Source of the DNA: Candidatus Obscuribacterales bacterium
Lineage (GTDB): Bacteria; Cyanobacteriota; Vampirovibrionia; Obscuribacterales; Obscuribacteraceae
DNA length: 64,000 bases
Assembly (NCBI GenBank): GCA_965228855.1
Contig: CBDDIJ010000002.1
Coordinates: forward strand, 704,001-768,000
Reading direction: 5' to 3'
Of this stretch, positions 2,325-63,739 are shown one piece after another. Positions within the stretch are counted from its first letter, which is position 1. Each line of letters opens with the position of its first letter. A program made the translations under genes and the position numbers. A model generated the notes under the pieces. That model searched no databases. It had not been told where the DNA came from and saw only the letters and a program-made list of their open reading frames with translations.

Positions 2325-2749
2325 CTACTATATCCCGGCGTATTAGCAAAATCGAGCAAACCCTGATGCGGTGTTGACTAAGAGCGATAATGCCTACGTT
2401 AGTCTTCACAAAACGCGGGCTTTTGGCTACGCTGCATTGCCGAAATTTGGAGAATCCGTCTATGCACCATAGCCAAGCGGCAGGAAAATTACGAGGTATA
2501 GCCCCAAAGGTCCCATCATTGCTACGTTTCAAGGATAAGGCTTATACTGTCTTTTCTAGTAGCAAAATCAGCGACAGGAAAATTACGAGGTTTAACCCAA
2601 GACACCCATCATTGCTAAGCTTCAGGGACGAAGCTTGTACTGTCTTTTCTAGTAGCAAAATCAGCGGCAGGAAAATTACGAGGTTTAACCCCAAGACACC
2701 CATCATTGCTAAGCTTCAGGGACGAAGCTTGTACTGTCTTTCCTAGTAG
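2325..2749 (+). repeat. Dispersed tripartite element, copy 1 (long arm, core 2423-2476, short arm x3)
   Basis: CTACTATA at 2325; 54-bp dyad core; 93-94-bp tandem units ending CTAGTAG at 2562, 2655 and 2749. Confidence 0.9.
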
Positions 2750-2767
2750 CAGATCGAGAAAGAACGA

Positions 2768-2794
2768 ACCTGGCGGGAGAGTCTCCCGCCAGGT
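2768..2794 (-). terminator. Terminator of sigma factor gene
   Basis: Perfect inverted repeat ACCTGGCGGGAGA-G-TCTCCCGCCAGGT just past the stop codon. Confidence 0.7.
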
Positions 2795-2805
2795 CAGAGA
2801 AATCA

Positions 2806-3639
2806 TCAGCGAACCGCCTGAACACCGGCGACGCGGCCGAGCTTCTGCAGCGCCTTCGCCTCGATCTGGCGGATGCGTTCGCGCGTGAGCTTGAACTGCT
2901 GAGCCAGGTCTTCGAGCGTCTGCGGGTCACCGTCGAGACCGAAGCGGCCGGAGACGATGATGCGCTCGCGCTCGTTCAGCACATCGAGAGACGCCCGAAT
3001 CGCCTTGGCGGTGTCGTCGGACTCGAGACGCTCATGGAAACGCTCGAACGAGCCGTCTTCCATGAGATCCCCAAGTTCCGTCTCACCACTCTCGCCGACG
3101 CGAGTGTTGAGCGACACCTCAATGAGCGCATACTCGGAAAGCTCCCGGATGTCCTTGACGCTCACCTTCATGAGCGCGGCCAGACGTTCCTCCGTCGGCG
3201 CTTCCTGGCTGTCGGCAAGCACCCGGAGCGCCTTCTTCAGACCCGCCAGCAGCTTGCGCTTCGTCGCAGGAATGCGAACGGTCGAGCTGTTGTCGCACGC
3301 ATAGTCCTTGATCGCAGCGCGGACCCAGAACCAGGCGTAGGTCGAGAAGCGAGTGCCGGCGGACAGGTCGAACTTCTCCGCGGCGCGAAGCAGTCCGAGA
3401 TTGCCCTCCTGAATCAGGTCGTCGAGCGGCACGCCGTAGCCCAGAAACTTGCGCGCAACCGGCACCACCATCTTCAGGTGAGCGGTGACGAGCTTGTCGC
3501 GTGCACGAGCGCCGGCGGCACCGCCAGACTGCATACGCGTGACCAACTCCTGCTCCTCTTCGCGGGCAAGAAGCGGGGCGGCGTATGCGCTCCGGAGATA
3601 GCCGTCGAGGTACGACGAAAACGGGTCATTCATAGCCAC
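2806..3639 (-). CDS. Sigma-70 family factor (RpoD/RpoH-like, regions 1.2-4, no region 1.1)
   Basis: DDLIQEGNLGLLRAAEKFD, RFSTYA.W, TRERIRQIEAKALQKL. Confidence 0.95.
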   Translation of the reverse strand: MAMNDPFSSYLDGYLRSAYAAPLLAREEEQELVTRMQSGGAAGARARDKLVTAHLKMVVPVARKFLGYGVPLDDLIQEGNLGLLRAAEKFDLSAGTRFSTYAWFWVRAAIKDYACDNSSTVRIPATKRKLLAGLKKALRVLADSQEAPTEERLAALMKVSVKDIRELSEYALIEVSLNTRVGESGETELGDLMEDGSFERFHERLESDDTAKAIRASLDVLNERERIIVSGRFGLDGDPQTLEDLAQQFKLTRERIRQIEAKALQKLGRVAGVQAVR

Positions 3640-4140
3640 AATTCCTTTCGCAGCAGCGCACCGACCTGAATGAGTCGATACGGAGTTGAAGATTTCGGAA
3701 CCGATGCCTCAAACCGTTCGCCACCACATTCGGTGCCGAACTTTTCCGGAGACAGAGCGCATCATCGAAACCTGACCAACGGACCCAACTGTTTCGCAAT
3801 TCGCAAAAGAAAAACGCGCGATTTAGTTGCAGAACAGAGAATTTAGGTCAGTTGATACCAGGCAACGAGGAATGAAATCGATATCTCCTAAATAACACTT
3901 GAGATCTATATAAAGCACGCTTAACAACTGGATTTACACTTGATTACGTTTCGTACGGCAATCCAAACACTTGCGAGACTCAGCCATTCACGACTTTTCA
4001 AGGCGCAGAAGCAGCACTCACGCAACCTGCGCCAACCCAAGCGGAATCGAGCGTTCGCGCAGTTCGCACAACACAAACATCACTCGCAAATGTTCAGGCT
4101 CTAAACGCCTGTGAGTCAAAATTTCGCCAGAACAGTCCAC

Positions 4141-5337
4141 TTATTGAAGCATTGCCAGCGCAGAAGCGGCGAGCATCGCCGCACCGATTGGGAGCGCGTC
4201 TTCGTTCACATCAAATGTTGCGGTGTGCAAGAAGCGCTCAGAGCCGGGGATTTGCACACCCAGGCAAATAAAGCACGACGGATATTTGTCCGAAAGGAAG
4301 CTGAAGTCCTCGGCACCCATTTTCATCGTAGCCTCGATTATCGCCTCACGGCCGATCATTTCAGTCGCGACTTTCTCGACTATCTCGACGGCTTCCGGAT
4401 GATTTACGACCGCCGGATTCTCGGTAATGTAGTGCAACTCATACGAGCCGCCCATCACCTCCGCGATACGACACGCGTTCTCGAGTTCAGCGCGGACAAC
4501 TTTGTGCGTATCCGCGTGAAAGTAACGCACCGTTCCAGTGAGTTCCACCGAATCGGCGACGATGTTGTTTTTAAACGTATTGCTTCTGATACCACCAATG
4601 GTGACCACTGCCGGGTCCAGGGCCGAAATTCTGCGGGACACGATTGTCTGAATCGCCTGCACAACTTGGCTGGCAACGACAATCGCGTCGACTCCAAGCT
4701 CAGGCCAGGCGGCATGGCAGCCGCGCCCCTGCAACTTTATATTGAAACTGTCACAAGCGGCCAGCAACGGACCAGACTTCAATGCGATCTTGCCGGTTTC
4801 CAATTCAGGAAAAACGTGAAGCGCCACAACTCGCTTGGCGCCTTCGAAGGCGCCGTCGTTGATCATCAAACTAGCACCGCTGAGACCGTCCTTGTTGGTC
4901 GACTCCTCTGCCGGCTGAAATGCGATCCGGATTCGCCCGTTTTTCGGCGGGTCCATGGCAAGCATCTGAGCTGCACCGAGCCCGCATGCGGTATGAACAT
5001 CATGTCCGCAAGCATGCATTACACCTTTGTTCTTCGAACAATACGATTTCTCGTTTGTCTCTTCGATTGGCAGAGCATCCATGTCCGCGCGAATGACGAC
5101 CATGTCGCCCGAGCCTTCGCCGATGTCCACAATAACTCCGGTGCCACCGACGCCTGATTTCGGTTTCAAACCAAACTTTTTCAAAGTCTCGACGACAAAT
5201 TCGGCGGTTTTGTTTTCCTCGAAACTCAGCTCGGGATTGGCGTGAATGTGGCGCCTGTAGCTGAGAAGGTCGTCTTGAATGGCTTTGGCTCGTTCAAGGA
5301 TCGCAGCACTGGAAATCTGTCTGGTCAAACTGGTCAT
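4141..5337 (-). CDS. M20 family amidohydrolase
   Basis: HANPELSFEE, RADMDALP, MHACGHDVH, FQPAEE, MGAEDF. Confidence 0.95.
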   Translation of the reverse strand: MTSLTRQISSAAILERAKAIQDDLLSYRRHIHANPELSFEENKTAEFVVETLKKFGLKPKSGVGGTGVIVDIGEGSGDMVVIRADMDALPIEETNEKSYCSKNKGVMHACGHDVHTACGLGAAQMLAMDPPKNGRIRIAFQPAEESTNKDGLSGASLMINDGAFEGAKRVVALHVFPELETGKIALKSGPLLAACDSFNIKLQGRGCHAAWPELGVDAIVVASQVVQAIQTIVSRRISALDPAVVTIGGIRSNTFKNNIVADSVELTGTVRYFHADTHKVVRAELENACRIAEVMGGSYELHYITENPAVVNHPEAVEIVEKVATEMIGREAIIEATMKMGAEDFSFLSDKYPSCFICLGVQIPGSERFLHTATFDVNEDALPIGAAMLAASALAMLQ

Positions 5338-5545
5338 GTGTTTTCACCCGCGGAACGGCACGATGCAGTGCCGCTTCATGGCGCTGCAAGTCGCCCATTT
5401 TAAACTTTTGCGCATCACTTGTCACCTCATGCGCTCTAAGGTTCCAAACCGGAGAAAAACGAAGCGCCGCTCCAGCACTCAACCTTGGTCACCCAGGTTG
5501 AATTGAAACGACGCTTCGCTCTCTTCTTCTTTTTAAACTGGCAAT

Positions 5546-5737
5546 CTAACTGGCAACAGGGAGCTCTGCCATCTTGTACGAGGAGGATTTAACGGATTCC
5601 TGCCTCGTCCAGATTCCGGCTGAACTGCTAGCGGGCTCGGCTTTTCGCCGCTCGTATTCCAATCGAACATGAAGGGGGTGTTGTTTCACGTAGTCGGAAA
5701 TTCTAGTAAATGAATCGAACTCAACTTTTGCAATCAT
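5546..5737 (-). CDS. Small hypothetical protein
   Basis: 63-aa ORF with ATG; no recognisable motif. Confidence 0.3.
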   Translation of the reverse strand: MIAKVEFDSFTRISDYVKQHPLHVRLEYERRKAEPASSSAGIWTRQESVKSSSYKMAELPVAS

Positions 5738-5876: not shown

Positions 5877-6326
5877 CTACTATATTCAAGCGTATTCGCA
5901 AATCCCGGCAAACGCTGACGAAACATGGCTTTTGGACCTACTCACCCGGTCGCCTCGTTCCAAAATCAGCGCTTCGTAACTACTACTATATCCCATCGTA
6001 TTCGCAAATCCCAGCAGATCTAGGCTACATATGACTTTTGGACCTGCACACCCCGTAGCCTCGTTCCAAAATCAGCGATTTGGCTACGCTGGAATGACGG
6101 ATCTGGCGAAAAGTGGCAATCGTACGTAGCCAAATCCAGATCAGGTCAGAGTACCAGATACCCAAAACCCCTGCAGGAAGCCTGCCTTGAGCATAAGGAT
6201 CTCACGACACCTTATAATAGCAAGGATACAGCGTAGCCAAATCCAGATCGAGCCGAGCGCCAGATACCTTAAACCCCTGCGGTGAGCCTGTCTTGAGCAT
6301 AGAGGTATCACGATATTTTATAGTAA
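5877..6326 (+). repeat. Dispersed tripartite element, copy 2 (long arm x2, core 6080-6133, short arm x2)
   Basis: CTACTATA at 5877 and 5983; dyad core; boxes TATAATAG ending 6220 and TATAGTAA ending 6326. Confidence 0.9.
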
Positions 6327-6340
6327 CAAACTTGGGGAGA

Positions 6341-6368: not shown

Positions 6369-6380
6369 AGCAAGCAGGTT

Positions 6381-17709: not shown

Positions 17710-18197
17710 CTACTATCTCTTGTCACACCCTTGTGGTTTCGAAACGGTCTGCCAGCAAGACTCTCCCCACCTACCCCACCGCATCGAAGACTTTTGTCTA
17801 CGAGCCATTGCCGGAATTTCAAAAATGCGTCATACCCACAGCGACAAGCATGGACTAAACCGCTTTCGACTACCTCGAAGACCTCTACTATCTCTTGTCG
17901 CGCCCTTGTGGTTTCGAAACGGTCTGCCAGCAAGACTCTCGTCACCTTGCCCCATTGCTTCGAAACTTTTGTCTACGAGCCGTTGCCGGATTTCGGCAAA
18001 TGCGTCATACCCACAGCGACAAGGCAAAAAGATCCTCTACTATCTCTTGTCGCGCCCTTATGGTTTCGAAACGGTCTGCCAGCAAGACTCTCCCCACCTA
18101 CCCCACCGCATCGAAGACTTTTGTCTACGAGCCATTGCCGGAATTCGACAAATGCGTCATACCCACAGCGACAAGCATGGACTAAACCGCTTTCGAC
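17710..18197 (-). repeat. Dispersed tripartite element, copy 3 (short arm + core, tandem x3)
   Basis: CTACTATC at 17710, 17885 and 18037, each 84 bp before a core at 17794, 17969 and 18121. Confidence 0.9.
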
Positions 18198-25578: not shown

Positions 25579-26194
25579 GCGCAGCTTGCTGAGCCACTTT
25601 ACACACGCACTGCAATTAACAGCAGTTTATTTAAGAAGACAACGAGAAGAGATTTATTGTCAAGCAGACATAAAACCTCACCCATAAAACCAAAGCACTG
25701 GTTGTAAGGAGACGCTCTGTTTTGATAGCTTCTCTATATACGTTTTTGTAACACAACTCAAAGGTCATCGGACGGGATAAGTAATTAGATAGCGAAATTC
25801 GAGAAGACATCGCGAAGGTTTTCGTGAATCGACTCAAACCGCTCTCCACCCCGTTCATCCCCGAAGAGCACTTGAAGCGAGATCGCACCGCCTCATCGGT
25901 GAATACTCGTGCGTGTGTTTTATTCAGCGTTCGCAAGCAAATCAGCCGATGTCGGTTGCACTCTCGAACGTCTTGAAACGCACCGGACGGCACTCGCTCC
26001 GAATGCCGCTTTCCAAGCCTCTTCACAGCAAGATAGTCGTACGGAGTTGGAAAACTCTTTGCGATGTGACGTACAGAATCGAAACGTTCTCGTTGATCCG
26101 CGTTCGCAAAGATCAGCGCTCTCTTGCTTTCCTCTCGATAGAAAAGCTGGCACCAGGACTTAGTTTTGAGGCAGCCAGCGAGGAAAGGTTCTCT

Positions 26195-27757
26195 ATGTCT
26201 GGAGAAAATAAAAGGCGACTGACGACCCCGAAGTCGCGAGTAAAAGTTCACTTACTTGGGTCCGCCGGCGATGTCACCGGCTCGCTTATCTTGTTCGAGG
26301 TCTCCTCAGAGCAAGCTGTCATCAGGTTCTTGCTCGAAGTGGGCTTGCACCAGGATGACGACAACATCAACCGCTGCCATCGGTTGCCGAAAGGTTTGAA
26401 AGCGAAGGACATCAACTTCGCAATCATCTCGCACGCCCACATCGATCACTCGGGATACCTGCCGAAGCTCATCAAAGACGGCTTCACAGGCCCCGTGTAC
26501 ACGCATGCGGCGACGAAGGATCTTCTGCGCTTCCTGCTGCCGGACTCCGGAAATCTGCAAGAGCGTGCGGCGGAACGCGAGAATGAGCGAAACGGTTTCA
26601 AAACCGAATCAGGCAATGCACGCGCCACCAAAGGCGGTGCCGGGAATAGACGCAGCGCCAGAAGCACCACGTCCGGTGGCGCCACCAACGTCCGCGTCTA
26701 CCCCCTGTACACCGCTGCTCAAGCTCGTCGCAGCCTGGACTCCATCAAGACGCTTCAGTACGATCGCCTCTACAAACTGGCCGAAGGCGTCTCGTGCAAA
26801 TTCACCGAGGCGTCGCACATCCTCGGAGCGGCAGTCGTCACGCTGGTTCTCGGCAGCGGCAAATCGAAGAAGACGGTTTGCTTCACCGGCAACGTCGGAC
26901 GCAACGGCATGCCGTTCCTCAAGGACCTGACGCCGGTTCTGGAGGCGGACTACATCATCACCGAGTCTACCTACGGCAACAAGCTGCACGCTCAGCGTGA
27001 CCGCTTGGCTGTCCTGGCCGGCATCGTCAACGACGCCTACAAGCGCGCCAAGCGACGCGACCCGAAAGAAGGTTGCGGCGTAATCGTGCTGCCGGCGTTC
27101 GCGGTCGGTCGCGTGCAAACCGTAGTCTATGACCTGGCGCGCGCGATGGAGAAAGGCATGATTCCGAACATCCCGGTCTTCCTCGACAGCCCGATGGCAG
27201 TCGAGGCGACCAAGGTGCACCGGAAGCACACCAATCTCTACAACGACGAAGCGAAGAAGCTCGTCGCGCGCGGCATCGATCCATTCAGGACGCCGCAGTA
27301 CGTGGAGTGCAAAGGCTGGGCCCAGTCGCGCGCTCTGGACAAGCCGGCAAGCGAACCGATCATCCTGATCGGCTCGAGCGGCATGGCTGCGGGTGGTCGC
27401 ATCCTCGGTCACATCGAGAAACGTCTCGATCGCGCCGAGAACACCATCGTCTTCGTCGGCTACCAGGGAACTGGTGCGCTCGGTTACACCCTCGTCAACG
27501 AGAAGCCGAGCGAGGTCACGATTCACGACAAGGTCGTGAAGGTGCGCGCCAAGATCGAGTACATGTCCGATTATTCCGGACACGCGGACTACGCTGAAAT
27601 CATCGACTGGCTGAAGAAATTCCGCCGCAAACCCAAGAAGGTTTTCCTCGTGCACGGTGACTCCGAAGCGCTGACCGCGTTCAAAGGACACATCGGCGAG
27701 GCACTGCCCGACTGGAATGTCGTGATTCCGCAACCGCGAAACTGCTTCGAACTGTAA
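26195..27757 (+). CDS. MBL-fold beta-CASP ribonuclease family protein
   Basis: SHAHIDHSG, HILG, ESTYG, PAFAVGR, SGM..GGR, SGHAD, LVHG. Confidence 0.93.
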   Translation: MSGENKRRLTTPKSRVKVHLLGSAGDVTGSLILFEVSSEQAVIRFLLEVGLHQDDDNINRCHRLPKGLKAKDINFAIISHAHIDHSGYLPKLIKDGFTGPVYTHAATKDLLRFLLPDSGNLQERAAERENERNGFKTESGNARATKGGAGNRRSARSTTSGGATNVRVYPLYTAAQARRSLDSIKTLQYDRLYKLAEGVSCKFTEASHILGAAVVTLVLGSGKSKKTVCFTGNVGRNGMPFLKDLTPVLEADYIITESTYGNKLHAQRDRLAVLAGIVNDAYKRAKRRDPKEGCGVIVLPAFAVGRVQTVVYDLARAMEKGMIPNIPVFLDSPMAVEATKVHRKHTNLYNDEAKKLVARGIDPFRTPQYVECKGWAQSRALDKPASEPIILIGSSGMAAGGRILGHIEKRLDRAENTIVFVGYQGTGALGYTLVNEKPSEVTIHDKVVKVRAKIEYMSDYSGHADYAEIIDWLKKFRRKPKKVFLVHGDSEALTAFKGHIGEALPDWNVVIPQPRNCFEL

Positions 27758-27764
27758 CAAGGAA

Positions 27765-27799
27765 GGGGAGTTGGCCTGGCAAGCCAACCCCCCTTTTTT
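27765..27799 (+). terminator. Intrinsic terminator
   Basis: GGGGAGTTGGC-N7-GCCAACCCCCC followed by TTTTTT. Confidence 0.8.
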
Positions 27800-27817: not shown

Positions 27818-27968
27818 CTACTATACTAGCCAGTATCGATTCCTGCCCGCAAATCCATCACCGGCGGAGGCTTCGAGGATCTCCCTCCGCTGCAAGTACT
27901 CCCAAAAACCCGTTTTGTCGCTCTACCGTAGACGGAATTTTGGAAATGCGTCATAGCCAGATAGACAC
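27818..27968 (+). repeat. Dispersed element, copy 4 (long arm + core 27915-27968)
   Basis: CTACTATA 97 bp before TTGTCGC...AGACG-N14-CGTCA...TAGACAC. Confidence 0.85.
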
Positions 27969-28213
27969 GAAGCTATCTTTGACTGGCAACACCACACGGC
28001 GGACTAAATGAACGGAAAACATCGGACGCTCCTGACGGAACGGTTCGAGCCATGATATCGCATATGGTGCCAGACCGAATTGCGAAGTCCGACGCAAAAT
28101 GCGACAAGCAGATAGCGCGCCTGGATGTTTTGATATTGAAACTGCAACTCAAAAAACTCTTGACGCGTGTTCGACGAAGCGCCTTCGTTTATATAGATAC
28201 GTCCGAAGCAACC

Positions 28214-28357
28214 TCAGGCGCGACCCTTCTTAAACACCGCGCCGCCAATCGCCATCACGATCCAACCGAGAAGTGGAACGGTCGGCATAAACCCAAAAAC
28301 GTTGCCGCACCAAATAACGGCACCGGCCACGAATATGATTGCGCCCAGAATCTGCAT
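28214..28357 (-). CDS. 47-aa two-helix membrane microprotein (not in the ORF track)
   Basis: RBS GAGG; MQILGAIIFVAGAVIWCGNVFGFMPTVPLLGWIVMAIGGAVFKKGRA. Confidence 0.7.
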   Translation of the reverse strand: MQILGAIIFVAGAVIWCGNVFGFMPTVPLLGWIVMAIGGAVFKKGRA

Positions 28358-28502
28358 AACTCAACCTCGGAAGTTTGGGGCGGTCTCCACTGGTCATAAC
28401 TTACCCGAAGGGCGACCACGCGAACCGCTAATCCGTCAACGAGTTTCGACACCAAATTAGGTAGAAACATTCAGGGTAACACTATGGGATAGAAACAATT
28501 GT

Positions 28503-28774
28503 TTGGCTATCCTGCAATGCCGAATTTTGCAGATTCCGGCAATGCACCGTAGACAACCGACACGGACAAAAGTGCACAAAAGCTCCTAACGACTGCCTGG
28601 ACGTGGTTTCGAGCGAAGATATTTATCATATCGCATAGTAGGAAGAATCGTGCCGAATTTTGCAGATTCCGGCAATGTACCGTAGACAACCGACAAAGTC
28701 AAATGTGCTCAAAGGCTCCTAACGACCACCCGGACGTGGTTTCGAGCGAAGAAACTTATCATATCATATAGTAG
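28503..28774 (+). repeat. Dispersed element, copy 5 (core 28503-28556 + short arm, then partial core + short arm)
   Basis: Boxes end 28641 and 28774, each 85 bp after TAGACAA. Confidence 0.9.
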
Positions 28775-39415: not shown

Positions 39416-40393
39416 TTGAATTACCTTTCAGGTTAGGAGAAGCACGACGGTGCTTCTGTCAGAGGTTGAATTTCGCAGGCGAAAACCCCGGTCATGCATT
39501 GACCCGGAGCCTGACTAAGAAAAGTCTCCCGAACCAAAACGTCAGTCAAGAAAACCTCGCGAAACACAAAACCTGCTCTTTCACCGAACTCAAAGACAGA
39601 GCCGGGAGAAGGGCGAGTTAGTTAAGTAATCGCGAAGTAGGAGGTTTTCTTCGACTAAACAATAAAGGTTAAGGATGCAGAAAGACCCTAGCTGTAAAGA
39701 CCGAAACTAAGCAACTCTCAGGCATTAGATGTGTATAAGCACTATATACATACTTGGCATTGCCGCGCCTCGTGAAAGACAGTTTATGAGAGGAGCCGGC
39801 TAACAGCTAGCAGAGCTAACGCCAATAGCGCGAGCCATGATCAGTCCAGCCAAAAGCCAACCCTGCGCCACCATATACAGTGCTTGACATTCAGGCTGCC
39901 AAGAACACGGTTTACGCGCGCGCGGAGCCAGAATTAGCTATGTCTGATTTGAATCTCAAGAGGAGTAGAAAGTACTGTTTACTCGCTATAACCTTTGCAT
40001 CTTTACGTGACAGGCCACTAAGAAACAGTTCCTCGATGTGCGCGAAAACCTGTTCTAGAGCTGATTTTAATCGGCGTGAACCTTAACGTGTTTCGTGACT
40101 AGTCAGTCATGATGCGCGTTTCGACAAAAGTGTTTTCCGGTCAGATGAGAGGAAGAACTGTTGTCGACTGGTTTTACAGGCAGACGCACTTCAACATGAG
40201 CGGCTCCTAATAACTGTCAAGACGAGAGTGAAGGTTAACAGTAGCTTACTTTCTTGCGACGAGAGAGAGACAATAAGTCTCGATCAGGATCAGTTCAGTA
40301 CGGCTGCTCGCTGCGGGCTCAACCTCGAAGCGCACCCCAGCCGGAAGAATGGATTACTGCAGACAAGAAAAAATATTCGGAGTAAGTAAGCAA

Positions 40394-43102
40394 ATGACTA
40401 AGCCTGACGATTCAATCGCAATTTCTCAGGCCGATTTCAGACTGCCCCGCCACGTCATCCCCAGCCGTTATGACATGACCCTGCGCCCCGACCTGAAGGA
40501 ATTCACCTTCACGGGCGACGAAGTCGTCGATATCGAGATTCTCGAAGCGACGAGTGAAATCAAGGTCAACGCCAAGAAGCTGGAGATCCCCAGCGCGTTC
40601 GTCGTCAAGGCTGACGGCACGCGCCTGAACGGCAAAGTCGAGATTGACGAGAAGACCGAGATCGCAACCATCACGTTCGCGGGCGTACTTGGGAAAGGCG
40701 CATGGAAACTCCATTGCACCTTCTCCGGTGTGCTCAACGACAAGCTCAAGGGTTTCTACCGCAGCTTCTGGACCGACGACCAGGGCGGCAAGCATGCAAT
40801 CGCTTGCACCCAGTTCGAAGCTACCGACGCGCGGCAGGCCTTCCCTTGCTTCGACGAACCCGAGTTCAAAGCCACTTTCAAGTGCGCGCTCGAGGTCGAT
40901 GAAAACCTGACCGCAATCTCCAACGGTCGCGTGCTCAAGGAAGAAGTGCTCGACGCCGGCATCCAGTATGTCAGCGTGCGCGCTTCGGACGCCAAGCCGG
41001 TCAGCAAGAAGCGCGTCGAATTCGCGGAAACGATGAAGATGTCCACGTACCTCGTGGCATTCATCGTCGGCGAGTTCAGAAGCTCCAAGCCGGTCAACGT
41101 CAACGGCAAGGAAGTCCGCATCTGGTGCGTTCCCGGCAAGGAACACCTGATGGACTTCGCTCTGAAAGCCGCGTCCTTCGGGCTCGACTGGTACGAGAAG
41201 TACTTCAACATCGCCTATCCGGGCGGCGACAAGGTCGACCACATCGCCATTCCCGACTTCGCGTCGGGCGCGATGGAAAACCTGGGCGCCATCACCTACC
41301 GCGAAACCGCGTTGCTCGTCGACGAGAAAACCGCTCCGCACTCCGCGCTCAAGCGCGTCGCCGAAGTCGTTCTCCACGAGCTCGCCCACATGTGGTTCGG
41401 CGACCTGGTCACGATGGGTTGGTGGAACGGACTGTGGTTGAACGAATCGTTCGCCACGTTCATGGAAAACCTCTGCCTGCATCACTGGAAGCCGGATTGG
41501 AACGTCTGGGAGGAATTCGCTCTCGGTCGCGCCGCCGCTGCCCGTCTCGATGCGCTCAAGTCCACCCACCCGATCGAGTGCCCCGTCCACCATCCGGACG
41601 AGATTGACGAACTGTTCGACCTGATCTCTTACGAGAAGGGCTGCTCAGTTCTCTATCAAATCCACCAGTTCATCGGCAAGGACGCGTTCCAGCACGGCAT
41701 CCGCGCTTACCTCAAGAAGCATTCGTTCGGCAACACCGAGACGCATGACCTCTGGGACGCGCTGGAATCCTCGTGCAAAGAGCTCGGTCTCAACCTGCCG
41801 GTCCGCGACATCATGGATGCCTGGGTGTTCACCCTCGGCCATCCGGTGATTGAAGTGAAGGAAGGCAGCGCCGAAGGCACCGTCGTCCTGCACCAGAAGC
41901 AGTTCACCTTCCTCCCCCGCGATGAAGAAGCCAAAGCCACGCTCTGGCCGATTCCCGTCACCATGCGAATCGCGAAGAAGGACGGTTCTTCCGAGGAAAA
42001 GAAACTCGTGCTCAAGGGCGAAGAGGAATCGGTTTATGTCGGCGAGAACTACGACCATGTCGTGGTCAATGCCGGCGGATCCGGTTTCTACCGTGTGGTC
42101 TACTCGCACGGGCTCAACGAGCGCCTGATCGGCGACGTACAAAGTTGCCTCTCGGTCGTGGAGCGCTTCAATCTCGTCAACGACAGCTGGGCTACGGTGC
42201 GCGCGCGCATCACGCCTGTCACCGACTACCTGGAAGTGGTCAAACTGTTCAGCGGTGAAGAAGACCCGAACGTCTGGTCCACCATCTGTGGTTCCATGTC
42301 GGCGCTCAACCGGCTCGTCTCCGGCTCGCACAGAACGGCTCTGCAAAAGGTCGTTCGCGAACTGATCGGACCTGCCGTCGAGAAGCTGGGCTGGGATCAG
42401 CGTCCAAGCGATTCGATCCAGACGCGCGAGCTGCGCGGCACTCTGATCAGCACGCTGGGCACCATCGGCGATGATGCCGCTGTGCAGAAGAAAGCGGCCG
42501 AATACTTCGACAAGTGGAAGAAGGACAAGGCATCCGTCGAAGCCAACGTCGTCCCGGCACTCGTGAGCATCCTGGCTTACACCGGCGACGAAAAGCGCTA
42601 CAACGAATTCGACCAGCTCTCCAAGGAAGCCACCACGCCACAGGACACGCTGCGCTTCATCAATGCGCTCGCGCGTTTCCGTGACGCCAAGCTCCTGGAG
42701 CGCACGATCGCCAAGTGCCTCTCCGACGAGGTCAAGACTCAGGACGCCCCGTATCTGTTCGCGAGCCTGCTCGCCAACGAAGATGCCGGTCCGGCGGCCT
42801 GGAAGTTCCTGACCGAGAAGTTCGACGACATGGTCGCCGCCTATCCGGAAAACGGAGTCGTGCGCATGTGCGGTGCCGCCGAGTACCTCGACAAAGAGGC
42901 GCTCGCCGACGAAGTCCGTACTTTCTTCTCGACGAAGAAGGTGAAATCGGGTGACATGGCTGTCGCTCAGATGCTCGAGCAGCTCGAAATCAACCTGCAA
43001 CTTCGCAAGGAGCAGGCCGCGCCTCTCGAGATGCACCTGGTGCCTGTCACCACTGACGGTGCCAAGCAGGAAGCAACCGCGGGCTCGAAGAAGTCCAAGT
43101 AA
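40394..43102 (+). CDS. M1 family aminopeptidase with ERAP1-like C-terminus
   Basis: TQFEATDAR.AFPCFDEP, GAMEN, HELAHMWFG...WLNE. Confidence 0.95.
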   Translation: MTKPDDSIAISQADFRLPRHVIPSRYDMTLRPDLKEFTFTGDEVVDIEILEATSEIKVNAKKLEIPSAFVVKADGTRLNGKVEIDEKTEIATITFAGVLGKGAWKLHCTFSGVLNDKLKGFYRSFWTDDQGGKHAIACTQFEATDARQAFPCFDEPEFKATFKCALEVDENLTAISNGRVLKEEVLDAGIQYVSVRASDAKPVSKKRVEFAETMKMSTYLVAFIVGEFRSSKPVNVNGKEVRIWCVPGKEHLMDFALKAASFGLDWYEKYFNIAYPGGDKVDHIAIPDFASGAMENLGAITYRETALLVDEKTAPHSALKRVAEVVLHELAHMWFGDLVTMGWWNGLWLNESFATFMENLCLHHWKPDWNVWEEFALGRAAAARLDALKSTHPIECPVHHPDEIDELFDLISYEKGCSVLYQIHQFIGKDAFQHGIRAYLKKHSFGNTETHDLWDALESSCKELGLNLPVRDIMDAWVFTLGHPVIEVKEGSAEGTVVLHQKQFTFLPRDEEAKATLWPIPVTMRIAKKDGSSEEKKLVLKGEEESVYVGENYDHVVVNAGGSGFYRVVYSHGLNERLIGDVQSCLSVVERFNLVNDSWATVRARITPVTDYLEVVKLFSGEEDPNVWSTICGSMSALNRLVSGSHRTALQKVVRELIGPAVEKLGWDQRPSDSIQTRELRGTLISTLGTIGDDAAVQKKAAEYFDKWKKDKASVEANVVPALVSILAYTGDEKRYNEFDQLSKEATTPQDTLRFINALARFRDAKLLERTIAKCLSDEVKTQDAPYLFASLLANEDAGPAAWKFLTEKFDDMVAAYPENGVVRMCGAAEYLDKEALADEVRTFFSTKKVKSGDMAVAQMLEQLEINLQLRKEQAAPLEMHLVPVTTDGAKQEATAGSKKSK

Positions 43103-43179
43103 TTCGGTAGGTGGGGCGAGCACGGTCCCCGGACCGGCTCTCCTCACCTCAGCCGAAGAGCCTGAAATTGCACGCTTTT

Positions 43180-43216
43180 GGGAGGGCGGTCCACTCGGAT
43201 CGCCCTCCTTCTTTTC
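43180..43216 (+). terminator. Intrinsic terminator
   Basis: GGAGGGCGGTCC-N4-GGATCGCCCTCC followed by TTCTTTT. Confidence 0.75.
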
Positions 43217-43292
43217 CGGTCGAAAAACTTAGGTTAGGTCTGTTGCGACCTTGGCATAAGAGGTTTGGACCCCAATCCGTACCGAGGGTTTA

Positions 43293-45902
43293 ATGCCTGC
43301 CCAACTGCAAGAAGCACAAAAACCAGCCACGACCAGACAGAAGTCTTTCCGACTTCCGGACTGCGCAGTTCCGAAGAGATACGAAATCCATCTCGCCCCG
43401 AACTTGGAAACATTCGAATTCGCCGGCCGCGAAACAATCGAGATTTTTGTCAGGGAAGAAACCGACCGAGTCGTTTTAAACGCCGTCGACATCACGTTCA
43501 ATGAAGTCTTAGCCGAGTCGATTGACGGAACACGTCTATACGGCAAAGTCGAAGTCGACTCAGAAACCGAGCTTGCCGCCATCATATTCGACGGAGCGCT
43601 CGGACGCGGAATCTGGCATCTCAAAATAACGTTCAAAGGCGAACTCTCTGATAAGCTCAGGGGTTTCTACCGCAGTATCTGGATCGACGATGACGGCAAG
43701 AAGCATGTTATCGCATCCACGCACTTCGAACCGACCCATGCTCGTCGCGCTTTCCCCTGCTTCGACGAGCCGGAGTTCAAGGCAACCTTCAAGGTTTTCC
43801 TCGAGGTCGATGAACAGTTTACAGCATTGTCGAATGGGAAGGCTTTGCGTGAGACGAAACTCCAGAACGGTACGAAGATTGTCGAATTTGCTGAAACCAT
43901 GCTGCTTTCGACATACCTCGTCGCCTTCGCAGTCGGCGAATTCGTCGGTTCTCCCCCTCAACGGGTAAACGGAACCGAGATTCGCATCTTCTGTGTACCA
44001 GGCAAGGAGCACCTCACGGCTTTCGCCGCCGACTGTGCTGCATTCGCGGTCAACTTCTACGAGCGCTATTTTGAGATACCATATCCTGCTGAAAAGATAG
44101 ACCACATCGCCATCCCCGACTTCCCAATCGGTGCGATGGAAAATCTCGGTTTAATCACATTCCGGGAAACCGCTTTACTGGTCGACGAAGAACAGTCTTC
44201 CCATGCCGGTCTCGTGCGCGTTGCCGAGATCATCATGCACGAACTTGCCCATATGTGGTTCGGCGACCTGGTCACGATGAAATGGTGGAACGGGCTCTGG
44301 CTCAAGGAATCGTTCGCCACTTTCATGGCAAACGCGTGCGTCGATGCCTACCGTCCGCAATGGAAAGTGTGGAACGACTTTGCGCTTTCGCGCGCCGATG
44401 CGATGGAAACAGACGCGTTGAAAACCACGCACGCCATAGAAAACCCTGTCAATCACCCCGACGAAGCAACCGAAATGTTCGATGTGATTTCGTATCAGAA
44501 AGGTTGCTCGGTGTTGTATCAATTGCATGAATTCATAGGAGTGGAGCCGTTCCGCATGGGTTGTGCACGCTACTTGAAACAGCACAGTTTTGGCAACACC
44601 GAAACTCATCACCTCTGGGATTCACTAGAGGAGGCCTGTCGTGAAGCCGGTTTGCAGATACCAGTGCGTCACGTCATGGACACCTGGGTATTCAGTTCCG
44701 GACATCCGGTCCTCACTGTTTCACCTGATGAACAGCCAGGCTGCATTGTTTTGCGACAGCAAATGTTTCGATTGGAGGAACAAGACGCATCCGGGTTCAA
44801 CTGGCCAGTTCCAGTCTCTATACGCGTCACGAAAGAAAACGGTTCGATTGAGACCAAGAAGTTTCTGATGAACAACCGAGAGGAGACCGTCTTCCTCGGA
44901 GAAGATACGCGCAGCTTCATTGTAAACGCGATGGGCAGCGGCTTCTACCGGGTGGTTTACGACGGTCGAATGATCGAATCGATAACCGACGACGTTGGAA
45001 AGTTGTCGGTAGTTGAACGGTTCAACTTGATAAACGACGCCTGGTCTATGTTGAAAACGGGACAGCAACCCGTTTCACAATTCTTGAAACTGGTTCGGTT
45101 GTATGAGAACGAAGCAGACTCGTCAGTCTGGCAAGTTCTCTACAACGCGCTCGAACATCTAAACGAACTGCTCGAGCCAGAAGACAAGCCACTCATGGCA
45201 AGTCTTATAGGAAAACTTTGCGCGCCGAATATATCGGCACTCGGCTGGGAACCGAAATCCGGCGAGAGTGTCGCCACGCGAAAGCTGCGCGCCATCGTTC
45301 TGAGACTGGCCGGAGTAGTCGGAGAAGACGAGGCTGTCAAAACTCGCGGGCGGGAGTCCTACGAGAAGTGGCGCTTAGACAATGACTCGCTCGATGCCGA
45401 GATGGTGCCAACCGTGATACACATCGTCGCCCAGGACGGTGACGAGAAACTTTTCGCAGACTTCCTGCACCTGTCGGAGACCGCCAGGACTCCTCAGGAC
45501 ACGATCCGCTACCTGTACGCCCTGGCGCGTTTTCGCAGAAAGGACTTGCTCGCAGAGACTGCGTCGCTATGCCTGTCTCCGAAAGTGCGCTCACAGGATG
45601 CACCATTCTTGTTCGCCGCGCTCATCCGCAATCCAGCCGCAGCCTCGGAAGCCTGGGAGTTTTTCAAAGCCAATTTCGAAGAAATGAAAGCTCGCTACCC
45701 GGACCTGGCAATGCACAAGCTGGTCAATGCTCTCAGCGTACTCGACACTCGGCAACTGGAGAGCGATGTGCGTAAGTTCTTCGCGAATAATCGCATCAAC
45801 GCCGGCGAGACCGCAGTCCGTCAGATGCTGGAGCAGCAGCGCATCAACGTGCGAATGCGCCACAAAGAAAAAGCCGCTTTGTCAGCGGCTCTCAGAACAT
45901 AA
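43293..45902 (+). CDS. M1 family aminopeptidase, tandem paralog
   Basis: GAMEN, HELAHMWFG...WLKE. Confidence 0.95.
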   Translation: MPAQLQEAQKPATTRQKSFRLPDCAVPKRYEIHLAPNLETFEFAGRETIEIFVREETDRVVLNAVDITFNEVLAESIDGTRLYGKVEVDSETELAAIIFDGALGRGIWHLKITFKGELSDKLRGFYRSIWIDDDGKKHVIASTHFEPTHARRAFPCFDEPEFKATFKVFLEVDEQFTALSNGKALRETKLQNGTKIVEFAETMLLSTYLVAFAVGEFVGSPPQRVNGTEIRIFCVPGKEHLTAFAADCAAFAVNFYERYFEIPYPAEKIDHIAIPDFPIGAMENLGLITFRETALLVDEEQSSHAGLVRVAEIIMHELAHMWFGDLVTMKWWNGLWLKESFATFMANACVDAYRPQWKVWNDFALSRADAMETDALKTTHAIENPVNHPDEATEMFDVISYQKGCSVLYQLHEFIGVEPFRMGCARYLKQHSFGNTETHHLWDSLEEACREAGLQIPVRHVMDTWVFSSGHPVLTVSPDEQPGCIVLRQQMFRLEEQDASGFNWPVPVSIRVTKENGSIETKKFLMNNREETVFLGEDTRSFIVNAMGSGFYRVVYDGRMIESITDDVGKLSVVERFNLINDAWSMLKTGQQPVSQFLKLVRLYENEADSSVWQVLYNALEHLNELLEPEDKPLMASLIGKLCAPNISALGWEPKSGESVATRKLRAIVLRLAGVVGEDEAVKTRGRESYEKWRLDNDSLDAEMVPTVIHIVAQDGDEKLFADFLHLSETARTPQDTIRYLYALARFRRKDLLAETASLCLSPKVRSQDAPFLFAALIRNPAAASEAWEFFKANFEEMKARYPDLAMHKLVNALSVLDTRQLESDVRKFFANNRINAGETAVRQMLEQQRINVRMRHKEKAALSAALRT

Positions 45903-45912: not shown

Positions 45913-45986
45913 CGGGACCGACGAGACTCGAACTCGCGACCTCCTACGTGACAGGCAGGCGCTCTAACCAACTGAGCTACGACCCC
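45913..45986 (-). tRNA. tRNA-Asp(GTC), CCA not encoded
   Basis: GGGGTCGTAGCTCAGTTGGTTAGAGCGCCTGCCT-GTC-ACGTAGGAGGTCGCGAGTTCGAGTCTCGTCGGTCCCG cloverleaf. Confidence 0.97.
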
Positions 45987-50812: not shown

Positions 50813-51047
50813 CTACTATATACCGAGGTAGTACACAGCCTCCCGAATACCAGTCACAGCAATGTTTTCAGGATTTCTTATTTATAGTCCGCCCTGAAAT
50901 CGGTTGCTTTGGCTATCGTACGATGACGGTTTTGCCGAAATGCGTCATTGTGGCGTAGACAAAATCACCAAGCGGTTTACGTCTGATACCCAAATCACCT
51001 CGCCTGAAACCATTTCGCGCAAAACGTATTCCTAAGTTCTATAGTAG
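50813..51047 (+). repeat. Dispersed element, copy 6 (complete single unit, 235 bp; core 50909-50962)
   Basis: CTACTATA, 96 bp to the core start, core, 85 bp to the end of TATAGTAG. Confidence 0.92.
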
Positions 51048-60613: not shown

Positions 60614-60716
60614 AACGACGATGACCGAAAAGCGTCCCGCCAGCGCTTCTCCAAATCTTCGTGAACGTCTCCGCCTCCCGAGGACCTCCCCAGGTCCTCG
60701 CTTTTACAAGCCACTT

Positions 60717-60942
60717 CTACTATATTCTTTCGTTACTCCGATATCCCAAAAGGCTACGTGGAAGCGGCTTTAAGCCGATGCCTCCCCACTCCTCCCTTCT
60801 TTCCTACTATATTCTTTCGTTACTTCAACATCCCAAAAGACTACATGGAAGAGGCTTTGCGCCGATGTCTTCCATCAAGGTCGCGTGGTTGTCTATGAGG
60901 CGTTGACAGTTTTCACAAAAAGCGGCAATGCCTGATAGACAA
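60717..60942 (-). repeat. Dispersed element, copy 7 (short arm x2 + core 60889-60942)
   Basis: CTACTATATTCTTTCGTTACT at 60717 and 60804; core 85 bp after the second box. Confidence 0.9.
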
Positions 60943-61136
60943 ACCCAGCACACCTTGGCGTCTCGGCGGCCTAACATCAGCCATTCCAACTCGTTAGATT
61001 GTTTCCCTCCACAAGGGAATTCCTCAAACAGCAACGCCTGCAATGGTTTGAACCGATTCGTTCACTTCTTGAAGGCTGAAATCGCAGCAAAACGGTTCCC
61101 CTGACAGCGGAACGGAATTAACGAGTTTCCGGCAAA

Positions 61137-61245
61137 CCCGTCATGCGTGGGGCGAGAGTTTCAAACTTGCGCGTCCCGTCATGTGTTGGGCGAGAGTTTC
61201 AAACTGCGCGTCCCATCATGCGGGGTTTCACACTTGCGCGTCCCG
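61137..61245. repeat. About 38-bp tandem repeat, x3 (third copy shortened)
   Basis: Unit CCCGTCATG-GT-GGGCGAGAGTTTCAAAC(T)TGCGCGT. Confidence 0.8.
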
Positions 61246-61676
61246 CCTTGCGCAGCTCTCGCCAACCCGATTGACCTTAAAAGGCGCTAAAAAGCAAAGT
61301 CCGGTTATCTCGAAGGAAAGCCCGATATTCCAAGGCCGCAGTCCCGCGAGCAACTCTGGACTACACTGCAGTTTCTCTTATCTTGACAATACTGAACTGG
61401 TCTTAACTTGTGATCTTGCAGCCTGAACAAACTAAAGTGAACTCAGCTTCTGACATCAACTTCACCGGTTTCTCACACCCACAGTCTTCCGCATCAACCC
61501 CGAATTTCCGCAGCAGTCTGTGCTCCGGAGAAGACCGTCAGCAGCGAGCGAAGGGCATTCCTAACCCATAATCCAGCAGAACGGATCATGAACGGATTGC
61601 CCGGATGGAACACGCGAAGCGCCTGAGTACAAGCGCGTGTTCTGCAACCCAAACTCAGGCAGATTGGATACACCTA

Positions 61677-62714
61677 ATGAAAAACACCATCGCAACCATC
61701 GAAGCCTCGAACTTCGATGAAACTGTGAAGGCAGAGCTCAAGGCGCTCGTCGAGATCACCAAGCTGGCCAAGGACACCGACTCCTCCAGCCAGGCGGCGA
61801 TGCACAAGTACAAAGCCGGCACCAACGAACGCCAGTACGCACGCCGTATCGCGGAGAAGATGACGAGCGAAAAGCGCACCGAGATGCAAGTTCATCAGTT
61901 CGCCTATCGCAACGCCTTCGCCAACGCCGTCTTCAGCGTGCATCAGGCTCGCAAGACGCTCGTCAAGGTCGGCGCCGACATCCGTGCTCTGGTCGCACGT
62001 CTCGAACCCGAGGCCAAGGACCCGAGCAATCGCAACGCTCTGATCGCGGTCATGGGCATCGCGTACGAAACCGACGGCATCAACCCTGACGCAGTTCTCA
62101 GCGAGCTGGACAACGTCAGCGACATCTCGCGCGAGCGCCTGCTGGAAGCTGTTCGCACCATCTTCGCGCACAAGAAAGCCGAGTCCGGCATGATGGCGGC
62201 GACGTCCTTCAGCTCCTACGAATTGCTGATCACCGACCCGACGGCCGAGCAGCAGGCTGTGCAAGACGCTCTCCAGCCCGCAATCGCCGTGCGCCAGGAG
62301 TTCGAAGATCACTGGAACTTCTACAGCTTCGCCAAAGCACGCTTCAACGTGCCGCAGTTCACGCAGCGCATGGAGCAGGCCGTTGCCGAAGGCGACGAAG
62401 CCAAGATCGAGAGCATTCGCGCCAGCCGCCGTGACGCCGAGGGAGCGGTCTTCGTCGCCGCTTCCAACTGGGTCAACGCTTACCCGCGGATGGTGAAGAT
62501 TCGCGAGAATCTCAAAGCCGCCATCCATCGCGCGGCGGACACAATCACGGAAACCAATTCGCTCGAATCGACCATCGCCATGAGCCATCTGATCGGCTGC
62601 TGGAAGTGGCACAGCGAATTGACCGGCTACATCGAGGGCAAGTTCCGCAAGGCGGACCTTGCGAGCGTCCTCGCCGGCCTCGACTTTGACACGAAGGAAT
62701 ACCTGCGCGGTTGA
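61677..62714 (+). CDS. Hypothetical alpha-helical protein
   Basis: Long ORF with strong GC3 bias; no motif recognised. Confidence 0.8.
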   Translation: MKNTIATIEASNFDETVKAELKALVEITKLAKDTDSSSQAAMHKYKAGTNERQYARRIAEKMTSEKRTEMQVHQFAYRNAFANAVFSVHQARKTLVKVGADIRALVARLEPEAKDPSNRNALIAVMGIAYETDGINPDAVLSELDNVSDISRERLLEAVRTIFAHKKAESGMMAATSFSSYELLITDPTAEQQAVQDALQPAIAVRQEFEDHWNFYSFAKARFNVPQFTQRMEQAVAEGDEAKIESIRASRRDAEGAVFVAASNWVNAYPRMVKIRENLKAAIHRAADTITETNSLESTIAMSHLIGCWKWHSELTGYIEGKFRKADLASVLAGLDFDTKEYLRG

Positions 62715-62795
62715 CGCATACGGTTTGCGGCGAGAGGGAGCATGCTCCTTCTCGCCTGCAGACTGCCTCTTCACACGAACGCATGAGCACATCCA

Positions 62796-63521
62796 ATGCG
62801 ATCAATAGTTCCCGAAACTGCTCGCAACATCGTTGCCATGGGCGGAGCCTTCGGCTACGACAACGATGCGGGTAAACGGTTTTTGAAACTGATGTTGCGG
62901 CTGACCGGCAAGCGCAAACCGCGCATTATGTTCGTCGGCACAGCATCAGGCGATCACGACTATGGGCGCGTCTGGTTCTACAGCCAGCTCGCCGGTCGAA
63001 ACTGCTACCCCTCGGTTCTGAAGCTCTTCGAGCCAGTTCCGAGCGACCTGACTTCACTCGTGCTTTCTCAGGATGCGATCTTTGTCGGCGGAGGCAACAG
63101 CACGGCGCTTCTCGGCGTCTGGCGCGCCTACGGCTTCGACAAAGCTCTCACCACCGCCTGGGAACATGGTGTCGTCTGTGGTGGCGCAAGCGCGGGTGGG
63201 ATTTGCTGGTTCGAACAAGGCATCTCTGCAAGTTCCTACACCGACAAGGTGGTGGCACTCCAGGGACTCGGTCTTGCGCACGGCAGTTTCAACCCTCACT
63301 ACGACACCGATCCGAAACGCCGTCCGGCTTACCACAAGCTCATCGAAACGGGCATCGCCCTCGATGGCATCGGCGTCGACGAAACCGCAGCCGTTCACAT
63401 CACCGGACGCGACAACGTTCGGGCTCTGAACGGCGACGGAAAATCGGCTTGCCATCGCGTTTTCCTCGATGGCGGCAAGGCAGTGGAAACGACGCTACCG
63501 GTCTCGGTCGTCCGTCGATGA
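62796..63521 (+). CDS. Peptidase E (S51) family protein
   Basis: TASGD, VGGGNS, GASAG, PHYD. Confidence 0.92.
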   Translation: MRSIVPETARNIVAMGGAFGYDNDAGKRFLKLMLRLTGKRKPRIMFVGTASGDHDYGRVWFYSQLAGRNCYPSVLKLFEPVPSDLTSLVLSQDAIFVGGGNSTALLGVWRAYGFDKALTTAWEHGVVCGGASAGGICWFEQGISASSYTDKVVALQGLGLAHGSFNPHYDTDPKRRPAYHKLIETGIALDGIGVDETAAVHITGRDNVRALNGDGKSACHRVFLDGGKAVETTLPVSVVRR

Positions 63522-63525
63522 AACA

Positions 63526-63580
63526 GAAGCGAGGCCAGCAAAGCGGTTTAAACCCGCCGAGCCGCCTCGCTTCCCCTTTT
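63526..63580 (+). terminator. Intrinsic terminator
   Basis: GAAGCGAGGC...GCCTCGCTTC followed by CCCTTTT. Confidence 0.7.
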
Positions 63581-63590
63581 CCCAATATAC

Positions 63591-63739
63591 CTACTATATT
63601 CTTTCGTATACATCAAGCCCCAAAACAGCGCCCCTGTAACAGTCTTCGACACCAGCCGTTTCGCCAACCCGCACAATATACGGGTTTGGCTACGAGAGAA
63701 TGACAGAATTTGCCAAAAGCGTCATTCTCTCATAGACAA
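63591..63739 (+). repeat. Dispersed element, copy 8 (long arm + core 63686-63739)
   Basis: CTACTATA 95 bp before TTGGCTA...TGACA-N14-CGTCA...TAGACAA. Confidence 0.9.

Follow-up and report, generated by a model that had tools for sequence, protein, structure and literature searches.

A dispersed two-dyad DNA repeat in the origin domain of an Obscuribacteraceae genome, and a PLD-HTH protein family as its candidate enzyme

We analysed a stretch of 64,000 bp (the window; contig C2, positions 704,001–768,000) of an 8.2-Mb genome, G000, from the Obscuribacteraceae, non-photosynthetic relatives of cyanobacteria. The window carries copies of a dispersed DNA repeat, made of a 54-bp core and short boxes set at fixed distances from it, and we report on this repeat and on the candidate enzyme for its spread, a protein that joins a phospholipase D (PLD)-like domain to a helix-turn-helix (HTH). 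An earlier note, made from the sequence alone, had listed ten cores and a partial core ending at 28689. All were present, the ten being 54 bp long with 0–4 mismatches to the consensus, and the note's copy 6 was confirmed as a 235-bp unit of the form box–arm–core–arm–box (Table 1). Two cores that the note had listed as separate copies, at 27915 and 28503, proved to be the halves of one composite enclosing a 115-aa open reading frame (ORF). This ORF may not be a gene, as an intact form was not recovered from the copy in the close relative G007. Each core consists of two 17-bp dyads (G[TG]C-N11-G[AC]C) with 33 bp between their centres; a T-run and an A-run separate the dyads, and the core ends are TTGKCTA...TAGMCAA. 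Locus 1 sits downstream of a sigma-70-family gene, and locus 3 repeats in tandem with periods of 175 and 152 bp.

Table 1. Repeat loci and associated features in the window (positions of the window)
Feature	Position	Strand	Description
Locus 1	2325–2749		left box 2325, core, triplicated right arm (boxes ending 2562, 2655, 2749)
Core, locus 1	2423–2476		54 bp, two 17-bp GKC-N11-GMC dyads, centres 33 bp apart
Locus 2	5877–6326		left and right arms both duplicated around the core (left boxes 5877, 5983; right boxes ending 6220, 6326)
Core, locus 2	6080–6133		54 bp
Locus 3	17710–18174	+	three tandem box–arm–core units, boxes 17710, 17885, 18037
Core, locus 3	17794–17847		54 bp
Core, locus 3	17969–18022		54 bp
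Core, locus 3	18121–18174		54 bp
Terminator-like hairpin and T-run of beta-CASP gene	27761–27799	+	about 18 nt ahead of box
Box CTACTATA-N7-GTA	27818–27835	+	orthologous site in G002 and G005 is a bare box, coreless
Locus 4, composite	27818–28774		box–arm–core, cargo, core–arm–box; partial duplication at right end
Core, left half of locus 4	27915–27968		54 bp
115-aa ORF between locus 4 cores	28052–28399	+	no NCBIfam or Pfam match
Core, right half of locus 4	28503–28556		54 bp
Partial duplicate	28651–28774	-	core from about its position 16, right arm, box; missing from G007
Locus 5 (copy 6)	50813–51047		235-bp two-armed box–arm–core–arm–box unit
Core, locus 5	50909–50962		54 bp
Locus 6	60717–60942	+	duplicated arm (boxes 60717, 60804), core 60889–60942; one-armed
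Locus 7	63591–63739	+	box 63591, 95-bp arm, core 63686–63739; one-armed

The core is enriched genome-wide, as the note had expected. A matrix built from eight window cores found 186 matches above 30 bits at 146 loci in G000; in the reversed genome sequence nothing exceeded 15 bits. Within C2:77–1,130 kb, a 1.05-Mb high-GC domain around dnaA that makes up 12.8% of the genome, lie 121 of the 146 loci; dnaA (C2 793 kb) and the GC-skew minimum both fall inside it. The note's density of one locus per 8 kb holds inside this origin domain only, not across the genome. Only one of the 146 loci is inside an ORF. Cores prefer gaps between convergent genes (67/145 versus 81/441) and avoid divergent ones (14 versus 112), which weighs against their forming a regulon of operators. 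A pattern allowing one mismatch gave 51 cores in G007 and two in G006; the remaining 38 of 40 relatives had none.

The degenerate positions of the core boxes showed no hairpin covariation (0.55 observed versus 0.55 expected, and 0.47 versus 0.54), and the N8 segments and core centre showed only a mild excess. On this ground we rejected an RNA fold or hairpin for both the core and the arm. Rfam covariance models recovered only one tRNA from the window, and one chance match (E 0.84) beside copy 6, so membership of an Rfam family was rejected. Nor is the core an attC site, as it lacks both the RYYYAAC...GTTRRRY ends and the hairpin pairing, and the note was also right to set aside dif and repetitive extragenic palindromes (REP). 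G007 is about 95% identical to G000, with four-fold sites 12.5% apart over the 700 kb compared; collinearity is kept over 400 kb. At orthologous loci the five invariant half-site columns changed at about one site in 460, versus 12.5% at four-fold sites, and the arms diverged by about 11%. The low rate of change and the missing covariation support the view, also taken by the note, that the cores are double-stranded protein-bound sites under constraint.

The box, CTACTATA-N7-GTA, is a 17-bp near-dyad and thus longer than 8 bp. The note had placed boxes in two distance classes, at 95–98 and 84–87 bp from the core. Fixed spacing was borne out, but as a ladder of 74, 85, 96 or 107 bp, in helical steps. 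Among the 197 boxed arms (of 292 arms in total), distances were 73–75 bp (7 arms), 83–87 bp (85), 93–99 bp (84), 105–110 bp (14) and 128–134 bp (7), with no box at 76–82, 88–92 or 100–104 bp. Phased A and T runs follow the box. Over the 146 loci, 22 had a long and a short arm, ten two long arms, seven two short arms, 81 a single box and seven no box; two-box loci thus occur in every length combination, which rules out the strict polarity that the note had proposed. Its picture of one tripartite unit with accessory arms also fell, as the box is separable and arms and half-cores are shared as modules (below). A terminator-like hairpin precedes 54 of 183 outer boxes, versus 22 of 300 random windows. 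The box is unlikely to be a sigma-70 -10 element: a -35 is absent, the column profile misfits and the boxes face terminators.

Judged from its distribution among relatives, the box is a separable, older host landmark and not an accessory arm of the core. Orthologs of the site at window position 27818 carry a bare box in G002 and G005 and a variant in G006, and eight more distant loci carry none. The pattern YTACTATA-N7-GT is no more frequent than in a reversed control. Boxes lie near dnaA in four relatives (23/26 in G041, 21/22 in G012, 8/13 in G065 and 6/7 in G078, in intervals chosen after seeing the data), and no clustering was found in G067; taken as a domain site, the box alone is a motif clustered in one domain across genomes. 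Of 40 boxes inspected, most form a TACTA-N7-TAGTA-like dyad with terminator-like hairpins on one or both sides, and one is near a core. Stand-alone 17-bp boxes between convergent terminators near dnaA were catalogued as L327–L366 (G078, G065, G016, G013, G041 and G012). Boxes also occur near other core types in G041, G012 and G111. At the sigma gene, the box was missing from all four of the more distant relatives that we inspected, which means that some boxes are not ancestral. Box flanks change fast both between G000 and G007 and in the genus g35, and positions +21/+22 were changed in 32 of 78 cases versus 12.5% neutral. We dropped hypermutation at the box edge as a mark of enzyme cutting, as the raised flank change is also seen in g35.

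The origin domain also stands out in GC content at third codon positions (GC3), which is 0.62–0.76 there and about 0.54 elsewhere in G000. Ten 15-kb samples from each of two relatives showed the same (G041, 0.52–0.59 versus 0.38–0.43; G065, 0.51–0.62 versus 0.45–0.50). The domain is sharp-edged (G000 C2:0–1,130,000; G041 C1:2.4–3.0 Mb; G065 C1:1.7–3.1 Mb), and its peak in G000, 0.76, is at C2:0–200 kb, away from dnaA. GC-biased conversion could account for it. A high-GC3 origin domain of about 1 Mb, marked by a 17-bp box between convergent terminators, is a separate family-wide feature; we found no description of it in the literature searched (listings and abstracts, not subscription journals or ISfinder).

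Core loci are prone to rearrangement, in keeping with the note's suggestion of a recombination site: 32 of 49 alignment breaks between G000 and G007 fall within 250 bp of a core, versus an intergenic expectation of 20%. Tandem duplications start within 5 nt of a box in 41 of 59 arrays, 12 of 64 duplications end at the core end (+50 to +58), and the junctions often hold 4–12 nt of filler. Between the two genomes, half-sites differ at three or more positions in 13 of 114 cases, and 22 of 114 arms are less than 75% identical, some through indels or tandem copies. Box, arm and half-core recur between distant loci with identities as high as 90% (0.62 or more in 14 of 17,848 pairs, where about one is expected), and in the four such cases that could be tested the partner arms were unrelated. 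Arms and half-cores behave as modules shared among distant loci. At locus 5 the left arm and right half-site differ (swapped) in G007, which also has a 224-aa gene outside the left box that is missing in G000.

Close pairs of one-armed elements face inward around the enclosed DNA in 14 of 25 cases and outward in three. Several inward pairs enclose ORFs of 115–697 aa, and some enclose only another core family. One composite in G007 (C3:330,552–331,322) encloses a 158-aa membrane-protein-like gene, which we take to resemble DUF421. The two cores flanking a cargo differ, so we rejected the idea that the core is a target duplication around it. Two IS110-family elements, present in three and four copies, all lie inside cores (seven cores). 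Type A (C2:775,9xx, 859,8xx and 1,122,0xx) is inserted in the outer box of the core and type B (C2:197,2xx and 988,9xx; C5:862,2xx and 1,461,4xx) in its inner box; the types are about 70% alike over part of their length, and each has a fixed insertion position. These elements likely target the repeat by natural RNA guidance.

Such cargo and insertions raise the question of a conventional transposon. The repeat could be an old miniature inverted-repeat transposable element of a DDE, HUH or IS110 transposase; the boxes would then be its terminal inverted repeats, and the PLD-HTH gene mere cargo. Two-armed copies are indeed bounded by inverted boxes, other genes occupy the equivalent cargo position, and IS110 elements sit at seven cores. 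We consider this explanation very improbable. Inverted repeats at both ends are lacking at the 81 one-boxed loci, the box predates the core at 27818, and the one clean empty site shows no target duplication. Copies of the IS110 elements share 99% identity, inserted recently and interrupt cores, which excludes IS110 as the maker of the repeat. The Y1 HUH transposase (PF01797) is absent from G000, G007, G041, G013 and G012 (two of nine genomes were positive), so a RAYT/IS200 transposase as the mover was rejected for G000. Finally, the paralogs of the PLD-HTH gene have core types of their own.

The note had found no cognate enzyme in the window, and this holds for the window itself; a candidate lies elsewhere on the same contig, at C2:103,074–103,847. 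This unannotated gene is between two cores, in the layout arm–core–gene–core–arm, and is built into the window's own repeat family. It encodes a protein of about 255 aa with the domain order PLD-like domain, CxxC, Xre HTH, and three of the strain-specific insertions between G000 and G007 encode related PLD-HTH proteins of about the same length. G000 has five such genes (C2 67, 103, 918, 1,002 and 1,043 kb), all in or at the edge of the origin domain; three PLD-HTH loci are common to G000 and G007, two were seen only in G000 and one only in G007. In an alignment of 32 sequences, which leaves out the degenerate 918-kb copy, H107, K109, D114, G121, S122 and N124 (HxKxxxxD + GSxN) are invariant. 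The 918-kb paralog (C2:917,966–918,766) lacks the HxK motif and retains an open frame and the HTH; in G007 the site is occupied by another cargo element. Shared copies have pN/pS values of 0.07–0.19.

A structure model of the protein (pLDDT confidence score 93.5) matched NucT, Nuc and Zucchini in Foldseek (E about 1e-6), and also PLD3 and TrmBL2. PF13091 matched five of six PLD-HTH proteins, one of them above the cut-off. On the motif and the modelled fold, the protein would belong to the PLD-superfamily nucleases of the Nuc/BfiI type. Its HTH resembles restriction–modification control proteins; no methyltransferase was seen in the listed PLD-HTH loci of G000. Among the closest relatives of the PLD domain is the PADLOC protein MkoC (E 2e-9). 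We also noted a large family of stand-alone 145-aa PLD proteins (P0058–P0120), some named from Saccharibacteria, that is closest to the nuclease domain.

Matches occur in 56 of 104 genomes of the host family, about 30 of them full length by our reading of the match table; the others are mostly PLD domains of long helicase-like proteins (about 930 aa). Nearly all of the best 150 clusters, formed at 50% identity, span the full length, and the family comprises at least 150 clusters. We found no member in 300 other genomes of the phylum sample (E 1e-40), no match on plasmids or viral contigs, and, by profile search, no full-length fusion gene in G065, G078 or G067. The PLD-HTH tree mostly follows host lineage. 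In contigs from 4 of 24 listed sequencing runs the gene was at the same locus and no excision joint was seen, although contigs cannot show rare circles. None of the sequencing runs listed as holders is an RNA run.

The evidence that ties this protein to the repeat is the pairing of gene versions with core types. The 1,043-kb and 67-kb genes have their own cores, of the same shape and different sequence, in 44 and 8 copies. Many cores lie 0–130 bp past the stop codon of a PLD-HTH gene, and at several genes they lie 150–220 bp upstream. A tandem-dyad score of at least 20, with dyad spacings of 32–35 bp searched, was reached at 23 of 59 fusion loci; among 15 helicase-PLD loci none reached it, and among 150 random genes three did. 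The 23 become 19 once four simple repeats are dropped by eye, and two pairs are near-duplicates. Among metagenome loci, 7 of 26 with an HTH (one a simple repeat) and 1 of 54 with PLD only reached this score. These counts are lower bounds because the score misses some true cores. Gene-adjacent cores are dispersed in their own genomes (5 in G041, 58 in G013, and 2–4 in each of three g48 genomes), and none of these three cores was found in the other genomes of its five-genome search. The paralog cores tested are therefore genome- or genus-specific and dispersed. Protein and core similarity correlated (Mantel r 0.25, p 2e-4) over 32 hand-picked loci that include three near-identical pairs and whose kin are not independent; core similarity was 0.63 at 50–95% protein identity, versus 0.42. 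Across the family, each repeat type often appears to adjoin its own version of the PLD-HTH gene, and some 25 matched protein–site pairs seem readable from the genomes.

One sub-family links the state of a core type to its gene. The paralog for the GTCAA cores is present in G007 and missing from G000, and GTCAA cores are more numerous in G007 at all eight paired loci. Imperfect copies number 3 of 46 in G007 versus 10 of 24 in G000, with the consensus taken from G007 and arrays not independent; three of the ten differ at the central base, which may be polymorphism. The GTCAA arrays of G007 (C3:39,550–456,521) have a 73-bp period; in many of their 19-bp spacers TCTAG occurs some 13 bp ahead of the core, which matches the phase of the 74/85/96 ladder. 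The family with CTGCAA cores has 44 copies (G000 C2:145,609–1,489,995 and C5:885,502–1,605,321) in tandem arrays of 102–103 bp, some nested in main-family elements (C2:218,879; 318,183).

We judge it highly probable that PLD-HTH proteins bind the cores, and we think it likely, with distinctly less assurance, that they also catalyse core spread. On balance we favour a reading in which the cores are binding sites of a PLD-HTH nuclease that would nick and rejoin DNA. In doing so it would copy the sites, at times along with its own gene and adjacent ones, beside a host box that is older and lies near the origin. Two HTH dimers would sit on the dyads, three turns apart, and the phased arm would bend the DNA and bring the nuclease to the box. 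There a composite dimer active site would form a 5'-phosphohistidine link and free a 3'-OH, as BfiI does; a phosphohistidine–DNA intermediate and transesterification are described for that enzyme (PMC2475615). Strand displacement and rejoining would then give copies that run from the box edge, often as far as the core end, with a host protein on the box steering insertion. A wider formulation, a histidine nick–join transposase made of a PLD nuclease and a swappable HTH reader that copies sites, itself and cargo by strand displacement and homes in helical phase on an origin-domain landmark protein, with hundreds of specificities in one family, is tentative, and we stop just short of endorsing it.

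Several observations weigh against the nick-and-rejoin reading. Binding, nicking and movement are deduced, not observed. Of the 59 fusion loci, 36 fall short of a score of 20, in a test that overlooks known cores too, and G006 (740 contigs) has main-type cores and no close ortholog of the gene. G000 has 17 tyrosine-recombinase (PF00589) matches, two of them inside the domain. Two cores flanking a cargo are not copies of each other. In the genus g35, box flanks are 26–27% changed (ten non-independent pairs), and G065 lacks the fusion gene; with variable flanks there too, box-edge duplications need not be enzyme-made, and the fast-changing footprint, seen in G000/G007 and g35, is a property of the host site. 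Each of the 57 G000 loci that could be mapped also has its core in G007, which makes most copies old and fixed. Conversely, 4 of 61 G007 loci are coreless in G000: two have decayed, a paralog cassette has taken the place of another, and the single clean empty site has neither a target duplication nor an adjoining box. Near-zero in-place change at the invariant columns is not expected of a purely selfish element; it suggests host benefit or enzyme-biased repair.

Such conservation would fit a domesticated chromosome organiser, in which PLD-HTH binds cores and bridges them to a box-bound host protein, shaping or processing the origin domain; copies would have spread long ago or through repair at the sites, each of which would now be kept by host selection. 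The note's topoisomerase or nucleoid-organising reading may apply to the box in this sense. Origin clustering in G000, G041 and G012, the high-GC3 domain in G000, G041 and G065, the mostly lineage-following tree and the presence of TrmBL2, a chromatin protein with HTH and PLD-like fold, among the fold matches all agree with it. We nevertheless hold it unlikely: only about 30 of 104 family genomes have the full-length gene, paralogs differ in specificity, G000 and G007 differ at three of six paralog loci, and the catalytic residues are invariant.

The variable flanks bear on another possibility, that the cores are operators of a self-repressing selfish nuclease or regulator gene, dispersed by a separate recombinase or by host repair at the box, which would act as a roadblock to replication or transcription between convergent terminators. 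Box and variable flanks are present without the enzyme, junctions carry filler, cores lie upstream of several genes and the HTH is of the control-protein kind. Operators would not be expected to favour convergent and avoid divergent gaps, nor to lie just past the gene's stop codon as many do; array size and conservation track the presence of the cognate gene, and no route to family-by-family dispersal is evident. We regard this explanation as quite improbable, a step below the organiser.

The window also holds two aminopeptidase N paralogs in tandem (40349–45902) followed by a tRNA (45913–45986), and a beta-CASP nuclease (25913–27757) that scores 302 bits against a Cas14 (type VII) model with a cut-off of 800 and has paralogs in most relatives. 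Twenty tRNA genes are packed in one 100-kb bin (C3:700,000–800,000). Contig C4 (182 kb) is 45% GC in one half and 64% in the other, and C2:0–77,000 is 63% GC; both are possibly integrated or mis-binned DNA (contamination estimate 5.8%).

Known transposases and recombinases fall into DDE, DEDD, tyrosine, serine and HUH catalytic classes. PLD nucleases can form covalent histidine–DNA links and rejoin DNA in vitro (PMC2475615). The literature searched (listings and abstract openings, outside subscription journals and ISfinder) yielded no mobile element that uses a PLD nuclease and no description of this repeat, the fusion family or the box. If the nick-and-rejoin reading is true, it adds new chemistry to mobile DNA. 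A 255-aa protein with about 25 matched protein–site pairs makes specificity and mechanism testable, and might yield compact site-specific tools for nicking and joining.

Among known systems, short sites such as parS, matS and ram mark chromosome domains, and the box alone resembles them as a short near-palindrome clustered in one domain across the family; its sequence differs, and it sits between convergent terminators. Integron attC and lambda attP sites offer a four-box dyad, half-site mosaics, about 240 bp with phased arms and targeting by IS110-family elements, all of which recur here together with cargo between sites. In contrast to them, RYYYAAC/GTTRRRY ends, hairpin covariation, an array and an adjacent tyrosine recombinase are lacking. 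Mokosh MkoC and the helicase-PLD proteins are the closest relatives of the PLD domain, but the present proteins lack the helicase and have a fused HTH, and helicase-PLD loci have no flanking cores (0/15). In the pMV158 family of rolling-circle origins, 84 bp separate a conserved nick site from an iterated bind site specific to the replicon, with an A/T tract and bending between (PMC1851628). The box–core geometry is similar and the nick 9-mer shares TACTA with the box, a five-base likeness that may be chance; here no HUH Rep was identified, the bind site is two dyads and not direct repeats, and the box is a dyad of the host that also occurs where the enzyme is missing.

The protein itself is like the type IIS nucleases BfiI and BmrI in that a PLD domain with a single motif precedes a DNA-binding domain. 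In the engineered BmrI198-C.BclI a PLD cutter is even fused to a controller protein, and cleavage falls near the operator (PMC2094064). The difference is that ours is a natural family, flanked by matched 50-bp sites. As a system, it comes closest to REPIN-RAYT, in which tens to hundreds of extragenic palindromic repeats are tied to a chromosomal enzyme gene (10.1101/2021.07.10.451892). The likeness covers repeat abundance (many extragenic copies tied to a cognate gene) and palindromy, a mostly lineage-congruent chromosomal gene tied to its own repeat type, absence from plasmids and viral contigs, repeat conservation that follows the enzyme, and IS110-family targeting. The differences are that the enzyme here is PLD+CxxC+Xre HTH and not HUH/Y1; that the repeats are double-stranded sites without hairpin covariation; that the gene is not single-copy, reaching up to ten matches per genome (five in G000) with several specificities, gained and lost at repeat loci; and that copies stand in phase with a host box and are concentrated in the origin domain. 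Most likely, then, this is a REPIN/RAYT-like system that would be driven by a histidine nick–join enzyme and not by an HUH transposase. The PLD-HTH system lacks the Y1 enzyme and the hairpin that define REPIN-RAYT, yet it works like REPIN-RAYT.

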